Part shown: in pieces, positions 1-55,632 of the stretch
Position numbering within the stretch: the stretch's first letter is position 1
Layout of the letters: every line of letters starts with the position of its first letter
Assembly (NCBI GenBank): GCA_027337125.1
Contig: GCA_027337125.1_3057.1
DNA from: a phage
DNA length: 64,000 nucleotides
Strand: one strand, 5' to 3'
Position numbers and translations under genes: made by a program
The notes under the pieces: generated by a model
The model's input: the letters and a program-made list of their open reading frames with translations, nothing else
Told to the model about the DNA's origin: nothing
Databases searched by the model: none

Positions 1-431
1 CCAATTAAAGGCGTGTTTGTTTTTGATGACGCAGTTAATTTCGTAGCATTTAACAAGATTATTGACGTTATAAATAATATTGAAGATCAATGGTCAGTCC
101 GTCGTCTGATGCAAGCCCTAGGTACGGATTTGATTGTTAATAACTTCGACCGCATGTATTGGGTAAAATTATTTGCTTTAGATTATCTTGATAAATTTAA
201 CTCAGGTTATGATTATTATATCGTTCCTGATACTCGTCAAGATCATGAAATGGATGCGGCTAGGGCGATGGGTGCTACAGTAATTCATGTAGTTCGTCCT
301 GGTCAAAAATCCAATGATACTCATATTACAGAAGCTGGATTGCCAATTCGTGATGGCGATTTAGTAATTACAAACGATGGTTCTCTTGAAGAACTTTTTT
401 CTAAAATTAAAAATACACTAAAGGTACTATA

Positions 432-432
<1 letters not shown>
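1..432 (+). CDS. 1: dNMP kinase gp1, C-terminal part (5' end lies outside window)
   Basis: Frame is open from window start; C-terminus matches recalled T4 gp1 (...GSLEELFSKIKNTLKVL). Confidence 0.9.
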
Positions 433-1129
<697 letters not shown>

Positions 1130-1201
1130 TTTCACAAAGTTGTTTACACGTTGATGAGGTAGTGATACTATTATCTCATCAAAATTAATTAGGAAAATAA
1201 A

Positions 1202-1489
1202 ATGAAAACTTTCAAAGAATTTACTTCTACAACTACCCCGGTTTCTACTATTACTGAAGCTACTCTTACTTCTGAAGTTATTAAAGCAAATAAAGGACGA
1301 GAAGGTAAACCAATGATTAGTTTGGTTGATGGCGAAGAAATCAAAGGTACTGTTTACCTAGGTGATGGGTGGTCTGCTAAAAAGGATGGTGCTACAATCA
1401 TTATCTCTCCTGCTGAAGAAACTGCGTTGTTTAAAGCTAAACACATTTCTGCGGCACATCTCAAGATTATTGCTAAAAATCTTTTGTAA
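1202..1489 (+). CDS. internal head protein at the ipI locus, with capsid-targeting N-terminus
   Basis: N-terminus MKTFKEF resembles T4 CTS (MKTYQEF); 95 aa; early promoter upstream; T4 IPI is an anti-restriction protein. Confidence 0.65.
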   Translation: MKTFKEFTSTTTPVSTITEATLTSEVIKANKGREGKPMISLVDGEEIKGTVYLGDGWSAKKDGATIIISPAEETALFKAKHISAAHLKIIAKNLL

Positions 1490-1565
1490 TAAATATTTCA
1501 CAAAGTTGTTTACAGTAGGGTAGTAGTGTGATACTATTACCCTATCAACTACTGAGGAGAATAAA

Positions 1566-1751
1566 ATGAAACGTTGTGAATTAATTCGAAATGTTGCTAT
1601 TGCAATTTCTGCTTCCGCTTTTAGTTTTTCAATGTTTGCTGGATTTATATGCGGATTATTGACTACAGCAGAAAATGTTTTTTCACTTGTAGTAGCATTT
1701 TTAATTGGTTTAATCGCTATTGTTATGGATAAAATTTCTAAAGGTGAATAA
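1566..1751 (+). CDS. small hydrophobic membrane protein
   Basis: 61 aa, two hydrophobic segments; SD GAGGAG upstream; own early promoter. Confidence 0.5.
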   Translation: MKRCELIRNVAIAISASAFSFSMFAGFICGLLTTAENVFSLVVAFLIGLIAIVMDKISKGE

Positions 1752-2156
1752 ATGAATATTAACGAATATTATGTTTATGCTGGGGATTATGCAAATCCTT
1801 CTCATTTTGAAGGTAATTTAATACCTGATAGAGTTTTTAATACTCCTTTTGAAGCGTGGAGTTGGGTTGAAAGTAAAAATGGATTTTCTTATCGTTATGT
1901 TGAAGTAACTGATTGGAAAGGAACTAAATATCCTAAAGAGCATTATTATGTAGACCCATCTAAAGTAAATTTTCTTTTGTTCGCAGGCGATAATTACTAT
2001 CCTTGCGGTGGATATGATGATTTGATTGCGTATGCTGAAACAGAAGATGAATTACGCCAAATTATTGAAGACAATAAATCAAAACGATTTGGCGATAGTT
2101 TTGACTGGTGGCAAATCGTAAATACCCATACACATACTATTGTTGATAAAGGTTAA
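1752..2156 (+). CDS. hypothetical protein
   Basis: 134-aa ORF, start abuts previous stop, same strand operon. Confidence 0.55.
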   Translation: MNINEYYVYAGDYANPSHFEGNLIPDRVFNTPFEAWSWVESKNGFSYRYVEVTDWKGTKYPKEHYYVDPSKVNFLLFAGDNYYPCGGYDDLIAYAETEDELRQIIEDNKSKRFGDSFDWWQIVNTHTHTIVDKG

Positions 2157-2710: not shown

Positions 2711-2782
<72 letters not shown>

Positions 2783-2794
2783 AAATTTAATTTA

Positions 2795-2868
2795 CTCCGT
2801 GTAGCTCAGTTTGGTAGAGCGTCTGCTTTGGGAGCAGAATGTCGCAGGTTCAAATCCTGCCACGGAGA
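2795..2868 (+). tRNA. tRNA-Pro (anticodon TGG)
   Basis: Acceptor CTCCGTG/CACGGAG, anticodon loop TTTGGGA, T-arm GGTTCAAATCC. Confidence 0.85.
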
Positions 2869-2870
2869 CT

Positions 2871-2957
2871 GGAGGCGTGGCAGAGTGGTTTAATGCACCG
2901 GTCTTGAAAACCGGCAGTCGCTCCGGCGACTCATAGGTTCAAATCCTATCGCCTCCG
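2871..2957 (+). tRNA. tRNA-Ser (anticodon TGA), long variable arm
   Basis: Acceptor GGAGGCG/CGCCTCC, anticodon loop CTTGAAA, T-arm GGTTCAAATCC. Confidence 0.85.
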
Positions 2958-3115: not shown

Positions 3116-3156
3116 TATTTTGAGAACATAAATACTCTTAGAAATAGGAGATATTT

Positions 3157-3822
3157 ATGTTCCATTACATTTATAAAATAACAAATAAAATTAATAATAA
3201 AATCTATATAGGCGCTCATTCTACCGAAAATTTAGATGATGGATATATGGGTTCTGGTAAATTATTAAAAAGAGCCCAAGATAAATATGGTATAGAAAAT
3301 TTTTCTAAAGAAATATTAGAGTTCTTTGACGATAAAACCTCTATGTTTGAGTCAGAAAAGAATATTGTGACTGAAGAGTTTTTAAAGCGCCCTGATGTTT
3401 ATAATTTGAAATTAGGTGGTGAAGGTGGTTGGGACCATTTAAACACTAAAGAATATTTGGATAAAAAGAAAGAAGCTTCCTTAAAAGGAGCTGCCGCTTT
3501 TAAAACCAGATTTGAGAACGACCCAGACCTTAAAGAAAAATATCGTAAAATGGGTTCAGAAAGGTTTAAACAGCTTTGGGATAATCCTAAGTATAGAGAG
3601 AAATTTTTAAATACTAAATCTTTCTTGGGTAAGACCCATACTCCTGAAACTATTAATAAAATGAAAGAATCTCACGCCAGAAATAAACACCAACAAGGTG
3701 AAAAGAATTCCCAATTTGGCATGATGTGGATTCATTCATTAGATGAAAAAGTTTCTAAACGTATTAAGAAAACTGACCCAATTCCAGAAGGATGGTTTAA
3801 AGGTCGAAAAATGAAATTTTAA
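3157..3822 (+). CDS. segB: GIY-YIG homing endonuclease SegB-like, inside tRNA cluster
   Basis: N-terminal GIY-YIG motif (IYKITNKINNKIYIGAH); sits between tRNA subclusters as T4 segB does. Confidence 0.8.
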   Translation: MFHYIYKITNKINNKIYIGAHSTENLDDGYMGSGKLLKRAQDKYGIENFSKEILEFFDDKTSMFESEKNIVTEEFLKRPDVYNLKLGGEGGWDHLNTKEYLDKKKEASLKGAAAFKTRFENDPDLKEKYRKMGSERFKQLWDNPKYREKFLNTKSFLGKTHTPETINKMKESHARNKHQQGEKNSQFGMMWIHSLDEKVSKRIKKTDPIPEGWFKGRKMKF

Positions 3823-3902: not shown

Positions 3903-4244
3903 GACAAGAAACCGGGTCGCTACCGGTAAGTCGTCGGACTGATGTTCCCTGAGTAAGGAATTGCGTTAATAATCTTTGTGTTTATTGATGCCCTCTTACA
4001 TCACAGCAGAAACGGCGCACCGAATTATCGATTCGAGGAAATATCTTTGCCGTAAGCCGAGTAGCGTTTTTGACGGAACGTTCGGATATGGTCGAGATGT
4101 GGCCTTTTAAAAATATTGAGTAGCGTCAACTACTTAATAACCGGGTTCGAATCCCGGCGTTTCGTACAAACACTTGCCTTAGCAGGTGGAACCCGACAAG
4201 GTTGCCGCAAGGCTTAGCCCCGACCGAAAGGTTGGGGCTTTTTA
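3903..4244 (+). ncRNA. stable small RNAs downstream of tRNA-Arg (T4 species 1/2, rnaC/rnaD-like); boundaries uncertain
   Basis: No ORF; GC-richer structured segment with tRNA-like T-arm (GGTTCGAATCC) ending in hairpin plus T-run; matches T4 rnaC/rnaD position. Confidence 0.45.
4216..4244 (+). terminator. rho-independent terminator closing the tRNA/stable RNA unit
   Basis: AGCCCCGACC-GAAA-GGTTGGGGCT hairpin followed by TTTTT. Confidence 0.55.
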
Positions 4245-4450
4245 GTATCTAGGCCTTTCTGGACCTCTCTAGGCATCATTTAGTTTCTACCCTTTATAAT
4301 ATATTATCTTATCTTTTAATTGTCCCTCCCTGCCCTAGAATTCCCTAAAACTTTTTAAAAATTTTTTCACAAAACTATTTACATCCCTGTTCTTCCATGG
4401 TACTATACAACTATCAACTACTGATACAGAAAAACAACTTGGATAATAAA

Positions 4451-4714
4451 ATGGATAATTACGGCGAACTGTTCAACTTCTTTATGAAATGTGTTTCAGA
4501 AGATTTCGGTCGTACGGTGAATGATATTAAAGTTATCGGTCCTGACCATCCGATGTTTGAAACTTACGCAGTAATGGGTAATGAAGATGGTCAGTGGTAT
4601 ACTGTAAAGGTTGTGATTAACATGTTTACTGCTGAAGGTTATGTTAAACTGTCTTCTAAAGTTTACCACGATAACGACGAAATCGCAGAAGAATATTTCA
4701 ATAATATGAAATAA
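4451..4714 (+). CDS. hypothetical protein
   Basis: Start moved to MDNYGE: the ORF-track start lies inside the promoter -10; 88 aa. Confidence 0.55.
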   Translation: MDNYGELFNFFMKCVSEDFGRTVNDIKVIGPDHPMFETYAVMGNEDGQWYTVKVVINMFTAEGYVKLSSKVYHDNDEIAEEYFNNMK

Positions 4715-9361: not shown

Positions 9362-9724
9362 ATGAAAGCATATCAAATTCTTGAAGGCACGCACAAAGGT
9401 ACTATTTATTTTGAAGATGGTATTCAAGCACGAATTATCGTTTCTAAAACCTTTAAAGAGGACTCTTTTGTAGACCCAGAAATTTTCTATGGTTTGCATG
9501 CCCGTGAAATTGAAATTGAGCCACAGCCTACAGTTAAAATTGAAGGTGGTCAGCACCTGAACGTTAACGTTCTGCGTCGTGAAACTCTGGAAGATGCAGT
9601 TAAGCATCCGGAAAAATATCCGCAGCTGACCATCCGTGTCTCCGGTTATGCAGTTCGCTTTAACTCTCTGACTCCGGAACAGCAGCGCGACGTTATCGCT
9701 CGTACCTTTACCGAGAGTTTGTAA
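9362..9724 (+). CDS. autonomous glycyl-radical cofactor GrcA/YfiD-like protein
   Basis: C-terminal 60 aa essentially identical to recalled E. coli GrcA / PflB glycyl-radical domain ([10 protein letters not shown]...[29 protein letters not shown]). Confidence 0.8.
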
Positions 9725-17718: not shown

Positions 17719-17742
17719 ATTTCAAAATTTTTTCATAAAACA

Positions 17743-17772
17743 GTTTACAAACATAAAGCTTTATGGTACTAT
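17743..17772 (+). promoter_or_regulatory. early promoter with conserved leader
   Basis: GTTTAC-17 bp-TACTAT followed by ACAACTATCAACTGATACGGATTTGGAGAA leader. Confidence 0.6.
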
Positions 17773-17806
17773 ACAACTATCAACTGATACGGATTTGGAG
17801 AACAAA

Positions 17807-18775
17807 ATGAAAACTGTAACTATCAATAAGGGTATCTACTTCGGTAAAGAAATCTCTGGAACTTTTGAGCTCTTAGGCGAATGGTTCCCAGATAATGCTC
17901 CGGTAGATGCACAAGGAGATGGTAAAGTTTTTGTTGAAATTGACGGTAAACGTCGCGGTGTTTGGGTTTACAAATCAGACATTTCATATGATGGTGTAAA
18001 AGTTGAAGAAGTTAAAGAATCATATGAAGATATGAAAACCCGCATTAATAAAAGATTTAATGTTATGGGAATGATGACGAATGGTATTATTAACGGAAAT
18101 ATTCGTTCATTAATTATCTCTGGTGCGGCGGGTATTGGTAAAACGTATTCTTTAGATAAAGCTTTAAATAAAGCAAATGATATTGGATACATTGAGTATA
18201 AAAGCATTAACGGTAAAATCTCTGGTATCGGTCTTTATGAACAGCTTTGGAATAATCGTGAAGAGAATTCTGTCCTTTTGATTGATGATGTGGATGTTTT
18301 CTCTGATATGGACATTCTTAATCTTCTAAAAGCTGCTCTGGACACTGGAGAGACCCGTAAAGTCTGCTGGAGCACTGCATCTTCTTACTTAGAAGAAAAA
18401 GGCATTGAGCGTGAGTTTGAATTTAAAGGAACGATTGTTTTTATCACAAACGTTGATATTGACCACGAATTAGACCGTGGTACTAAACTTGCTCCACATT
18501 TACAAGCATTAGTGTCCCGCTCAGTTTATTTAGATTTGGGTGTTCACACTAATGAAGAAATTATGGTCAGGGTTGAAGATGTTATTCTTTCAACTGACAT
18601 GATGCAAAAGCGCGGTCTTTCTGATGAAGAAACTTATAAAGCATTATCATGGATGAAAGTCAATGTTAATCGTTTACGCAATGTTTCACTGCGTACTGCA
18701 CTTTATCTTGCTGACTTTATTATGACCGACAAAAACGGTTGGGAAGAAATCGCTGAAACGGTATTGTTAAAATGA
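17807..18775 (+). CDS. AAA+ family ATPase
   Basis: Walker A SGAAGIGKTYS, Walker B LLIDDVD, sensor-like ITN; ATG after GGAGAA; ORF-track upstream extension runs through terminator and promoter. Confidence 0.6.
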   Translation: MKTVTINKGIYFGKEISGTFELLGEWFPDNAPVDAQGDGKVFVEIDGKRRGVWVYKSDISYDGVKVEEVKESYEDMKTRINKRFNVMGMMTNGIINGNIRSLIISGAAGIGKTYSLDKALNKANDIGYIEYKSINGKISGIGLYEQLWNNREENSVLLIDDVDVFSDMDILNLLKAALDTGETRKVCWSTASSYLEEKGIEREFEFKGTIVFITNVDIDHELDRGTKLAPHLQALVSRSVYLDLGVHTNEEIMVRVEDVILSTDMMQKRGLSDEETYKALSWMKVNVNRLRNVSLRTALYLADFIMTDKNGWEEIAETVLLK

Positions 18776-40177: not shown

Positions 40178-40210
40178 TTATAATTTACACTAAACTTGAA
40201 TGAGGAAATT

Positions 40211-41170
40211 ATGATTACCGTAAATGAAAAAGAACACATTCTTGAACAGAAATATCGTCCATCTACTATCGATGAATGTATTCTTCCCGCCTTTGATAAA
40301 GAAACCTTTAAATCTATTACAAGTAAAGGTAAGATTCCACATATTATTCTTCATTCTCCTTCTCCAGGAACAGGTAAAACAACTGTAGCAAAAGCATTGT
40401 GCCATGATGTAAATGCTGATATGATGTTTGTGAATGGATCAGATTGTAAAATTGATTTCGTTCGTGGTCCTTTGACTAATTTTGCCAGCGCCGCTTCATT
40501 TGATGGTCGTCAAAAAGTAATCGTTATTGATGAATTTGACCGCTCAGGATTAGCAGAGTCTCAGCGACATCTTCGTTCCTTTATGGAAGCTTATAGTTCA
40601 AACTGCAGTATTATTATTACTGCTAACAATATTGATGGTATTATTAAACCGCTTCAGTCACGCTGCCGAGTTATCACATTCGGTCAACCGACCGATGAAG
40701 ATAAAATTGAAATGATGAAGCAGATGATTCGTCGATTGACTGAAATCTGTAAACATGAAGGAATTGCTATAGCTGATATGAAAGTTGTAGCAGCTTTGGT
40801 TAAAAAGAATTTTCCTGATTTTCGTAAAACTATTGGCGAGCTCGATAGTTATTCATCTAAAGGTGTTTTGGATGCTGGTATTTTATCACTGGTTACTAAC
40901 GATCGTGGTGCTATTGATGATGTTCTTGAGTCTCTCAAAAATAAAGATGTTAAACAACTCAGAGCTTTAGCACCAAAATATGCGGCTGATTATTCGTGGT
41001 TCGTGGGTAAACTTGCCGAAGAAATCTATTCACGTGTAACTCCACAGAGTATTATTCGTATGTACGAAATTGTCGGCGAAAATAATCAGTATCATGGTAT
41101 TGCAGCTAATACTGAATTGCATCTAGCTTATCTTTTCATTCAGTTAGCATGTGAAATGCAGTGGAAGTGA
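40211..41170 (+). CDS. 44: clamp loader large subunit gp44
   Basis: 319 aa from MITVNEKEH; Walker A GTGKTT, DEFD box, SRC motif; ORF-track TTG start replaced by ATG after GAGGAA. Confidence 0.95.
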
Positions 41171-51583: not shown

Positions 51584-51877
51584 ATGAAAAAATTTGTTTT
51601 TGCTGCAATTTTTGCTTTGGCTTCTTGTGCTGCTCAGCCTGCTATGGCGGGTTATGATAAAGATTTGTGCGAATGGTCTATGACTGCAGATCAGACTGAG
51701 GTTGAAACTCAGATTGAAGCAGATATTATGAATATCGTTGAACGTGATCGCCCTGAAATGAAAGCTGAAGTACAAAAACAGCTTAAGTCTGGTGGTGTAA
51801 TGCAGTATAATTACGTTCTGTATTGTGATAAAAACTTCAATAATAAAAATATCATCGCTGAAGTAGTAGGTGAATAA
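51584..51877 (+). CDS. sp: Spackle (Sp, 61.3) periplasmic lysozyme inhibitor
   Basis: 97 aa with signal peptide; matches recalled T4 Sp (MKKF.FA.IFALASCAAQPAMAGYDKDLCEW...). Confidence 0.85.
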   Translation: MKKFVFAAIFALASCAAQPAMAGYDKDLCEWSMTADQTEVETQIEADIMNIVERDRPEMKAEVQKQLKSGGVMQYNYVLYCDKNFNNKNIIAEVVGE

Positions 51878-52056: not shown

Positions 52057-53085
52057 ATGTCATCAATACCTTGGATTGATAATGAGTTTGCATATCGTGC
52101 GCTAGCTCATTTACCTAAATTCACACAAGTAAATAATAGTTCAACTTTTAAATTACGGTTTAGATGCCCTGTTTGTGGAGATTCAAAAACCGACCAAAAT
52201 AAAGCTCGTGGATGGTATTATGGCGATAATAATGAAGGAAATATTCATTGCTATAACTGTAACTATCATGCACCAATCGGAATATATTTAAAGGAGTTTG
52301 AACCCGATTTATATCGTGAGTATATCTTTGAAATAAGAAAAGAAAAAGGTAAAAGTCGTCCAGCAGAAAAACCTAAAGAACTTCCTAAACAACCTGAGAA
52401 GAAAATAATTAAATCTCTTCCGTCATGCATTAGATTGGATAAACTGGCGGAAGACCATCCAATTATAAAATACGTAAAAGCTCGATGTATTCCAAAGGAT
52501 AAATGGAAATATCTTTGGTTTACAACCGAATGGCCTAAATTAGTTAATAGTATAGCGCCAGGAACATATAAAAAGGAAATATCTGAGCCTCGTCTTGTTA
52601 TTCCAATTTATAATGCTAATGGAAAAGCTGAGTCTTTTCAAGGACGTGCATTAAAGAAAGATGCTCCTCAAAAATATATCACCATCAAAGCTTATCCTGA
52701 GGCAACAAAAATCTATGGAGTCGAACGGGTTAAAGATGGTGATGTATATGTTCTAGAAGGACCTATAGATTCTCTTTTTATTGAAAATGGTATAGCTATT
52801 ACGGGTGGTCAATTAGACCTAGAAATTGTTCCATTTAAAGATAGACGTGTATGGGTTTTAGATAATGAACCTCGTCACCCTGACACTATTAAACGAATGA
52901 CTAAATTAGTTGATGCAGGAGAAAGGGTTATGTTTTGGGATAAATCTCCCTGGAAATCAAAAGATGTCAATGATATGATTAGAAAGGAAGGTGCAACCCC
53001 TGAACAAATTATGGAATATATGAAAAATAATATTGCCCAAGGGTTGATGGCTAAAATGCGGCTATCTAAATATGCTAAGATTTAA
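52057..53085 (+). CDS. 61: DNA primase gp61
   Basis: 342 aa; zinc ribbon CPVCGDS...CYNCNYH; TOPRIM-like EGPIDSLF. Confidence 0.95.
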   Translation: MSSIPWIDNEFAYRALAHLPKFTQVNNSSTFKLRFRCPVCGDSKTDQNKARGWYYGDNNEGNIHCYNCNYHAPIGIYLKEFEPDLYREYIFEIRKEKGKSRPAEKPKELPKQPEKKIIKSLPSCIRLDKLAEDHPIIKYVKARCIPKDKWKYLWFTTEWPKLVNSIAPGTYKKEISEPRLVIPIYNANGKAESFQGRALKKDAPQKYITIKAYPEATKIYGVERVKDGDVYVLEGPIDSLFIENGIAITGGQLDLEIVPFKDRRVWVLDNEPRHPDTIKRMTKLVDAGERVMFWDKSPWKSKDVNDMIRKEGATPEQIMEYMKNNIAQGLMAKMRLSKYAKI

Positions 53086-53282
53086 ATTAACCCAACTAAA
53101 GCAAATGCTAAATCTACGAATGTATCAAGAGTAATTACTGGAATACTAACGCCATGAGCAATAGCAACTGGCGATAAAACAAAATTCCAAAGTAAAATTC
53201 CTATCATAGCAGAAATAGTAAAAGCTATACGTTTTTTATTACCTTTGATGGCATTAACAAGTGCCATTAATTTTTGTACCAT
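53082..53282 (-). CDS. small membrane protein on the opposite strand (66 aa)
   Basis: Only minus-strand gene with strong SD (AAAGGAGG 7 nt before ATG) and ATAAATAT late-promoter-like box; two hydrophobic helices; overlaps last codons of gene 61. Confidence 0.5.
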   Translation of the reverse strand: MVQKLMALVNAIKGNKKRIAFTISAMIGILLWNFVLSPVAIAHGVSIPVITLDTFVDLAFALVGLI

Positions 53283-53330
53283 GCGTCGTCCTCCTTTAAA
53301 TTAATATTTATCGCAAATTTTACAAAATTT

Positions 53331-53376
53331 GTTTACTTTCTCAGCTTGTTATGGTATTATAAAATAAACTGCTGAG
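53331..53376 (+). promoter_or_regulatory. early promoter inside inverted repeat whose 3' arm covers the SD
   Basis: GTTTAC-17-TATTAT; arms CTCAGC / GCTGAG, the latter within GCTGAGGA SD. Confidence 0.55.
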
Positions 53377-53385
53377 GATAATATA

Positions 53386-54725
<1,340 letters not shown>

Positions 54726-55348: not shown

Positions 55349-55356
55349 TATAAATA
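55349..55356 (+). promoter_or_regulatory. late promoter of soc
   Basis: Exact TATAAATA box about 30 nt upstream of soc ATG. Confidence 0.65.
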
Positions 55357-55386: not shown

Positions 55387-55632
55387 ATGGCTAGTACTCG
55401 CGGTTATGTTAATATCAAAACGTTTGAGCAGAAATTAGATGGAAATAAGAAAATTGAAGGAAAGGAAATTTCTGTAGCTTTCCCTCTTTATTCTGACGTT
55501 CACAAAATTTCTGGCGCTCATTATCAGATATTCCCTTCAGAAAAAGCAGCATATACTACCGTATATGAAGAAAATCAACGTGCTGCGTGGATTGCTGCAA
55601 ACGAAGATTTGTGGAAAGTAACTGGTGAATAA
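55387..55632 (+). CDS. soc: small outer capsid protein Soc
   Basis: 81 aa, matches recalled T4 Soc (MASTRGYVNIKTFEQKLDGNKKIEGKEISVAFPLYSDVHKISGAHYQ...). Confidence 0.9.
   Translation: MASTRGYVNIKTFEQKLDGNKKIEGKEISVAFPLYSDVHKISGAHYQIFPSEKAAYTTVYEENQRAAWIAANEDLWKVTGE

Follow-up and report, generated by a model that had tools for sequence, protein, structure and literature searches.

The stretch of phage DNA analysed here (NCBI GenBank assembly GCA_027337125.1, contig GCA_027337125.1_3057.1; 64,000 nucleotides (nt), hereafter the window) carries on its minus strand a 66-codon open reading frame (ORF) that is almost certainly a real gene. It converges on gene 61, which encodes DNA primase, keeps this place in related T4-like phages, bears the marks of selection on its protein and follows a conserved box of the late-promoter type; its product is very probably a membrane protein. 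From these features we infer that the gene is transcribed late, that its product has a defined orientation in the membrane and that it is distantly related to phage holins. Taken as a whole, and with the functional part included, our favoured reading of an accessory late membrane gene encoding a holin-derived lysis modulator is tentative.

An intact and selected gene on the minus strand

Translation of the ORF (Table 1) yields MVQKLMALVNAIKGNKKRIAFTISAMIGILLWNFVLSPVAIAHGVSIPVITLDTFVDLAFALVGLI. The ATG and the 66 codons that an earlier note on this DNA had proposed were confirmed, and the near-perfect Shine-Dalgarno (SD) sequence described there, AAAGGAGG, was read from the sequence at the claimed 7-nt spacing. 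Across 16 T4-like loci the SD core is GGAGG or AGGAG in almost all, and the two weakest have GGAG. The same note had the ORF overlapping the last codons of gene 61. An overlap of 4 nt (TTAA) does exist, but it comprises the two stop codons only. All minus-strand ORFs of at least 40 codons that begin with ATG and carry an SD-like motif were then listed for the 64-kb window. Two were obtained, the 66-codon ORF and a 54-residue ORF at 40354..40190, the latter without a late box. T4 early and middle transcripts are all of one polarity, whereas late ones may have either (PMC2988020). Because of this single polarity and the result of the scan, it is reasonable to regard the 66-codon ORF as the only credible antisense gene of the window, as had been suggested, a second SD-bearing minus-strand ORF without a late box notwithstanding.

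A tblastn search with the 66-residue protein returned 704 phage records, 691 of them with at least 80% coverage of the protein. Tequatrovirus copies were 85-100% identical to it, those of Mosigvirus and Gaprivervirus about 50% and those of Jiaodavirus about 30%. Searches with two distant family members added Gelderlandvirus (S16) and the Enterobacter CIP9 and Edwardsiella PEi20 groups, and the family is also found on metagenomic T4-like contigs. At least six genera of the Tevenvirinae retain the ORF, with proteins that are 25-55% identical, and the protein of the window is 100% identical to annotated proteins from more than 25 phages. In all diverged loci examined the ORF is intact at 59-70 codons despite the AT-rich DNA, a persistence that we judge to be far beyond chance. 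In codon-aligned pairs, substitutions were most frequent at the third codon position, less so at the first and least at the second, and the ratio of nonsynonymous to synonymous substitution rates (dN/dS) was 0.05-0.3 in the informative pairs. Because of these two patterns and the conservation, we take the ORF to be protein-coding and under purifying selection.

The gene order around the ORF was compared in the window, T4, fPS-2, JS09, VR7, Boboto, RB69, S16 and four metagenomic contigs. In every T4-like case the ORF is the lone opposite-strand gene and is convergent with gene 61 beside its 3' end; the convergence with the primase gene first pointed out in the window recurs in all T4-like loci compared. 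The 4-nt stop overlap is the usual arrangement and is identical in JS09, RB69, S16 and two of the metagenomic contigs. The neighbours on the promoter side vary, being dam in T4, a nuclease gene and dam in the window and a homing endonuclease gene in fPS-2, while gene 56 lies directly on that side in RB69, JS09, VR7 and S16. Synteny, the breadth of the tblastn matches and purifying selection together speak for a genuine gene conserved in related phages, a point on which the earlier note had made its proposal hinge.

The gene is not found in every T4-like genome. RB49 (Krischvirus) has 14 nt between genes 56 and 61 (491..2052 of the locus stretch) and lacks the small ORF; therefore the gene falls outside the T4-like core, and we class it as a widespread accessory gene of the Tevenvirinae, the T4-type phages of enterobacteria. 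Frameshifted copies are present in two lab-derived T4 records, T4_ev240 with a 1-nt deletion in an A-run of the ORF and T4_583L with a 2-nt deletion. Unless they are sequencing errors, these frameshifts suggest that the gene is dispensable in the laboratory.

Two further arrangements were seen among the loci. In the Gaprivervirus VR7 a second, degraded paralogue lies right after the intact copy (2702..~2900 of the VR7 stretch). This VR7-type second paralogue is eroded further in TH40 (~2759..2917 of the TH40 stretch), and an intact protein of the paralogue type, 68 residues long, is the sole copy at the same position on two metagenomic contigs, a pattern that suggests lineage replacement by recombination. 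One T4-like metagenomic contig has an extra gene of 124 codons (4204..4578) that separates the small ORF from the primase gene, and the 4-nt stop overlap of the small ORF is now with this inserted gene.

A conserved late-type promoter box

The box upstream of the SD, GATAAATA, matches the T4 late promoter consensus at seven of eight positions, the sole mismatch being at -13. The consensus, TATAAATA, occupies -13..-6, and -13 is its least conserved base; in T4 an A replaces the T at 9 of 50 sites, and A or T is common at this position in relatives. When the upstream regions of the 16 T4-like loci were aligned, 15 were found to carry ATAAATA at a distance of 19-40 nt from the ATG, although the flanks had diverged. 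The base preceding it is G, A or C, and S16 has the variant ATTAAATA. T4 late promoters lack a -35 element and have an AT-rich stretch after the box; here too the DNA downstream of the box is AT-rich (TTAATTTAAA). The predicted start at about 53299 would give a leader of about 17 nt, beginning just before the SD.

The minus strand of the 64 kb has only four sites of the NATAAATA or ATAAATA type, and the NATAAATA upstream of the 66-codon ORF is the only one that precedes an SD-bearing ORF. No credible SD-bearing ORF lies behind the late boxes at 9410, 7004 and 3159 on the minus strand of the window. The exact TATAAATA is absent from the minus strand across the 64 kb. On the plus strand an exact TATAAATA is present at 55349..55356, 30 nt before the soc ATG, and serves as an in-window reference for late-promoter spacing. 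The late-promoter-like box that had been reported thus proved to be conserved, as a variant form of the T4 late promoter, and late transcription of the gene is likely. As overall counts, a preprint on differential RNA sequencing (dRNA-seq) of T4 gives 150 phage start sites, 22 of them antisense (bioRxiv 10.1101/2024.04.04.588121).

A small protein with one solid predicted transmembrane helix

In the AlphaFold2 model, built from a 22-sequence alignment with a predicted local distance difference test score (pLDDT) of 80, residues 2-12, 16-42 and 52-63 are helical and residues 43-51 form a loop. Insertion energies of transmembrane (TM) segments were estimated by a simple sum on the Hessa scale. 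By this sum the best 19-mer, residues 19-37, comes to about 0 kcal/mol and is TM-competent. Residues 48-66, which contain D53 and D57, come to about +6 kcal/mol and are not predicted to insert alone, and the C-terminal 19-mer of the Jiaodavirus and S16 proteins comes to +11 to +12 kcal/mol. The net charge is +5 in the N-terminal segment and -2 in the part after the TM helix. For the RB69 orthologue, named RB69ORF029w, one TM segment had been predicted at residues 21-41 (Nolan et al. 2006). The model, the hydropathy and charge distribution and this published prediction agree on the membrane protein that the earlier note had proposed. Of the two hydrophobic helices it described, one at about residues 19-42 is solid in the TM prediction, but the short C-terminal helix is not TM-competent alone. 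The N-terminus is probably inside, with the loop and the short C-terminal helix facing the periplasm. Conservation is complete or nearly so at W32, N33, P38, G44 and P48, and an acidic residue comes next at about position 53; the conserved residues are located in the outer half of the TM helix and in the Pro-rich loop. Past residue 18, trypsin would release a single peptide, hydrophobic and 48 residues long.

Table 1. Positions in the window of the 66-codon ORF, its signals and protein features, and neighbouring genes and elements
Feature	Position	Strand	Remarks
66-residue coding sequence, PHROG 2024 family	53082..53282	-	ORF listing, ATG start; orthologue of RB69ORF029w and VR7ORF033w
Shine-Dalgarno sequence AAAGGAGG	53290..53297	-	7 nt spacing to the ATG of the 66-codon ORF
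Late-promoter-like box GATAAATA	53305..53312	-	upstream of the 66-codon ORF
Predicted transmembrane helix, codons 19-42	53157..53228	-	AlphaFold2, hydropathy; preceded by a basic KGNKKR patch
Signature W-N-[FY]-x4-P-x-A-x3-G-x3-P, codons 32-48	53139..53189	-	aligns with PF11351-type holins
Intrinsic-terminator-like hairpin and T-run, gene 61 strand	53245..53277	+	inside codons 5-13 of the minus-strand ORF
Promoter-like site for the nuclease-dam unit	53332..53360	+	from a scan; divergent from the predicted late start
Gene 61 (DNA primase)	52057..53085	+	convergent partner of the 66-codon ORF; stop codons interlocked
sp (61.3)	51584..51877	+	about 1.2 kb from the 66-codon ORF
186-residue type II nuclease-like ORF (PHROG 8706)	53386..53946	+	end abuts the dam start
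dam	53946..54725	+	
soc	55387..55632	+	exact late box upstream

A catalogued family with few distant relatives

The protein matches PHROG 2024 with an E value of 1.9e-30 (residues 2-66 against positions 1-65 of the 65 in the profile), as do all 17 diverse family members in the alignment. PHROG 2024, which is labelled 'unknown function', consists of Tevenvirinae hypothetical proteins encoded between the gene 56/dam side and gene 61 on the opposite strand. In length, position and strand the ORF equals PHROG 2024, RB69ORF029w, VR7ORF033w and S16 gp16.1, and no difference from them was found. The family is therefore already catalogued as a hypothetical protein, and its kind is not new. Pfam, NCBIfam and PADLOC gave no match for the 66-residue protein, and a sequence search of the PDB with the family profile returned noise only (E of at least 0.25). 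An exhaustive profile search of 1.84 billion representatives gave only 13 clusters; the family is therefore narrow.

Three of the 13 clusters lie in non-T4 contexts, and all three match PHROG 2024 at about 1e-11. The first is represented by a distant member of 59 residues (129..308) on short metagenomic contigs, 16 nt upstream of a gene for a 352-residue, alarmone synthetase-like protein with a RelA_SpoT domain (325..1383). The second follows the tail genes of a temperate-looking phage, and the third is located at the end of a prophage, with a lysozyme gene 1.5 kb away.

Likeness to the PF11351 holins

The earlier note had called the product holin-like, and a lead in this direction came from the profiles. 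Two family members match PF11351 (GTA_holin_3TM) at about positions 66-117 of 123 with E values of 0.03-0.1, and one matches the holin family phrog_3427 with an E value of 5e-4. A tblastn search with the 59-residue distant member finds the Pan1 'GTA-like holin' and a protein of Rhodobacter phage RC1. The RC1 protein scores 24.2 bits against PF11351, for which the threshold is 24.8, and many of its relatives are annotated as PF11351; it is encoded immediately after a lysozyme/peptidoglycan-binding endolysin. An hhalign comparison of the T4-type family with the RC1/PF11351 family gave a probability of 81.5% and an E value of 1.1e-5 over 39 columns. With T4-like members only the probability was 69%, the E values of both runs lying between 1e-5 and 4e-5, and reversed-sequence controls did not exceed 0.2%. 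The shared motif also strikes the eye, as in LPPMPLEKVV of Jiaodavirus and LPPMPFDQLI of RC1. Foldseek listed two 'Holin of 3TMs' entries at the non-significant E values of 6-10.

Both the T4-type protein and the PF11351 proteins (e.g. RHWG_00029 of RC1; TC 1.E.54; the RcGTA rcc00556 type) are small phage membrane proteins. Over about 39 residues they share W-N-x-[VI]...A...[LI]-P-P-x-P-[LF]-[DE]-x-[LV], which covers the last TM helix, the loop and the final segment. The T4-type protein has 60-70 residues, in contrast to about 120-170 in PF11351, and it is without the N-terminal soluble part, the first TM helix or helices and the basic C-terminal tail of that family. PF11351 has three TM helices, whereas the 66-residue protein has at most two hydrophobic segments, of which one is predicted to insert alone. 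The RC1 member is located in a lysis cassette, whereas the T4-type protein is not encoded beside an endolysin. In the PF11351 family itself, the holin activity of rcc00556 has been inferred and not directly shown (PMC3423380). On the strength of the profile alignments, we lean slightly towards homology between the T4-type core and the PF11351 module.

The product was also compared with known T4 envelope proteins. The T4 holin T (gpt), 218 residues long, has a large domain in the periplasm and is in its own right a requirement for lysis. The 66-residue protein, unlike T, has almost no soluble domain, and no sequence similarity between the two was found. Presumably late-acting, with a single TM helix and found in the same phages as T, it is a reasonable candidate for a partner of, or parallel to, T and its regulators RI and RIII. 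Imm and Sp (spackle, 61.3) are likewise small proteins of the envelope whose genes share this accessory region, but they are early and come from the other strand, and Sp is a secreted periplasmic protein. No homology of the 66-residue protein to Imm or Sp was found.

Possible roles of the protein and its transcript

In the reading that we favour, the late RNA polymerase (gp55/gp33/gp45) would transcribe an otherwise silent strand from the variant promoter NATAAATA, and the strong SD would direct the translation of a 7-kDa inner-membrane protein. Its basic N-terminus (net +5) would remain in the cytoplasm and one helix, at about residues 19-42, would span the membrane. The W-N...P...G...P loop and the acidic-then-hydrophobic C-terminal helix would be periplasmic, either in an N-in/C-out arrangement or as a shallow hairpin. 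The conserved core would be a distant relative of the final membrane-embedded part of the PF11351 '3TM GTA-type' holins. The protein would then be a non-essential factor that modulates permeabilisation or the timing of lysis beside the T holin, and would not itself trigger lysis. An accessory role rather than that of a trigger is favoured because a charged tail and an endolysin neighbour are missing, T is required and the frameshifted records suggest dispensability. A role of this kind in lysis or permeability is possible, though it stays on the doubtful side.

Several observations weigh against this reading. T4 t mutants do not lyse, and therefore the 66-residue protein makes no lethal holes alone at its natural level. 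Of the features expected of a holin, a small size with at least one TM helix is predicted for the protein, but a charged C-terminal tail is missing: the sequence ends in ...FALVGLI with no charge after D57, and the charged segment is N-terminal. There is no adjoining endolysin gene either, the neighbours being primase, the type II nuclease-like ORF, dam and 56, which weighs little since the T4 lysis genes are scattered. All scores that link the family to holins are below the curated thresholds. The protein of the window has no PF11351 match at E of 1 or less, and the best family members reach 13.6-15.3 bits against the threshold of 24.8. The hhalign probability against the single Pan1 sequence was only 22%, and Foldseek found nothing significant among viral structures outside the protein's own family. 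The three non-T4 contexts are not clear lysis cassettes. As for the promoter, the box is off consensus at -13 (G, C or A), the S16 variant differs, and the hidden Markov model scan of Nolan et al. (2006) listed no late promoter before RB69ORF029w. Of the holin-like character suggested earlier, what stands is a moderate, order-specific profile likeness to the C-terminal membrane module of PF11351; the missing tail and endolysin neighbour, the reliance of T4 on holin T, with no need of a second one, and the two frameshifted T4 records speak against it.

The strongest alternative is a late membrane protein with a job other than lysis, such as a block of superinfection or DNA entry late in infection, comparable to that by the early membrane proteins Imm and Sp, a counter to some membrane-associated defence of the host, or help in membrane-bound assembly. 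The likeness to PF11351 would then reflect a shared module for insertion or oligomerisation. Whatever speaks for a late membrane protein that is conserved and under selection also fits this alternative, and the holin hallmarks are absent. The gene sits in an accessory region that also contains sp, its promoter-side neighbours are freely swapped in a manner typical of accessory host-interaction loci, and one relative adjoins the RelA_SpoT-domain gene. However, the protein resembles neither Imm nor Sp nor any PADLOC model, and the sole sequence lead points to holins. Late timing would also be ill-suited to exclusion functions, which are early in T4. We regard a non-lysis envelope function as doubtful too, and as nearly equal in standing to the role in lysis.

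Other alternatives give weight to the transcript. The terminator scan found no minus-strand terminator-like site within about 3.8 kb downstream of the ORF, and a late transcript would extend antisense into gene 61 unless halted by Rho. The antisense targets of such a transcript would be the 3' untranslated region (UTR) and terminator of gene 61 and gene 61 itself. The locus could be imagined to have a dual function, in which a holin-derived late protein tunes when or how completely the T holin permeabilises the membrane, or tunes lysis inhibition, and the antisense transcript silences the primase operon; we consider this combination improbable. If the RNA were the main product, a terminator-less late transcript from NATAAATA would traverse gene 61 and its upstream neighbours in antisense and help to shut off the primase-operon mRNA late in infection, and the small protein would be of minor importance or incidental. 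The lack of a minus-strand terminator-like site fits this account, as do the interlocked stop codons of the ORF and gene 61, which leave a terminator no room. Nevertheless, purifying selection acts strongly at the protein level, and the start codon, the SD and residues of the protein are conserved. Family members outside the T4-like phages have no primase gene nearby, Jiaodavirus has a GC-rich hairpin between the ORF and gene 61, and Rho would be likely to terminate an untranslated antisense tail. An RNA as the main product is hence quite unlikely.

The earlier note had also offered the ORF as an antisense regulator of the nuclease-dam promoter. The predicted start at about 53299 points away from both the promoter-like site of that unit and the nuclease start at 53386. 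The units diverge without any overlap, and with this geometry such a control is not supported.

A further alternative is a small lethal peptide, of the type I toxin kind or another, that is made late and kills or depolarises the host. The protein is small and hydrophobic, its SD is strong, and one family member matches the Pfam Ldr_toxin family with an E value of 0.1. This single match, the only trace of the toxin-like nature once proposed, is at noise level. No antitoxin RNA architecture and no overlapping small-RNA promoter were evident in the scan. Type I toxins are typically shorter than this protein, whose conserved motif falls in the loop and not in the helix. The viable frameshifted lab strains are compatible with a toxin but are uninformative. 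We hold a toxin to be very unlikely.

Finally, the ORF might be no gene but a by-product of a conserved gene 61 3' UTR and terminator and a divergent promoter region, as the terminator-like hairpin inside it and its absence from the T4 RefSeq annotation could suggest, but this is effectively refuted by a dN/dS well below 1, by the conservation of the ATG, the SD and the late box together, by homologues in unrelated phage contexts and by an ORF that spans at least six genera where the hairpin is in Tequatrovirus only.

The hairpin and the surrounding locus

The hairpin on the gene 61 strand has a fold z of -2.2 and resembles an intrinsic terminator for the gene 61 transcript; the annotation of Yersinia phage fPS-2 labels this element (53245..53277 in the window) a terminator. 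The hairpin scan recovered it from the window and from fPS-2, and its stem can also be made out in T4, while none was found in the other genera compared. Because the hairpin is confined to Tequatrovirus, the gene 61 terminator cannot explain the conservation of the ORF and was ruled out as its cause. The DNA of this segment doubles as a terminator-like element on the plus strand and as coding sequence on the minus strand.

The region around the ORF has more than 95% identity with hundreds of Tequatrovirus (T4-like) genomes. The gene order of the window is that of the T4 early region, with a 61.4-like gene, sp, 61.1, the primase gene 61, the 186-residue ORF, dam, 56 and soc, and the plus strand of the window corresponds to the T4 minus (counter-clockwise, early) strand. 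The 186-residue ORF has a weak likeness to type II restriction enzymes (Pfam DpnII, E 0.0025; PADLOC REase_II, E 5e-5). DpnII cleaves GATC, which is the Dam site, and the 186-residue ORF and dam may be a phage-borne nuclease/methylase pair. This ORF has been lost from T4, in which its last 20 or so codons remain (3140..3202 of the T4 locus stretch).

A gap in the T4 annotation

In T4 (NC_000866) an intact 66-codon ORF with an SD and a late box is located at 17738..17938 on the plus strand (3239..3439 of the T4 stretch). It lies in a 309-bp unannotated gap that the RefSeq record leaves between dam and gene 61, and several further T4 records leave it unannotated too. Literature on T4 ribosome profiling (Ribo-seq) and small proteins, on antisense and late transcripts and on the ORF names yielded nothing on this gene. 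The absence from the T4 annotation, the late-type box shared across genera and the moderate link to PF11351 holins appear to be unrecorded. The gene is ordinary in kind, and the result is not surprising.

T4 is the reference model of lytic phage biology, and its circuit of lysis and lysis inhibition (T, RI, RIII and the spanins) is considered essentially complete. A conserved, selected and probably late membrane gene in a RefSeq gap is a small, concrete hole in the T4 parts list, and omics data mapped to NC_000866 are blind to this gene. Should the protein have no role in permeabilisation, the gene would still be a cheap target, with 66 codons and a clear mutant design. If the protein does modulate permeabilisation, it would be a new component in a textbook system.

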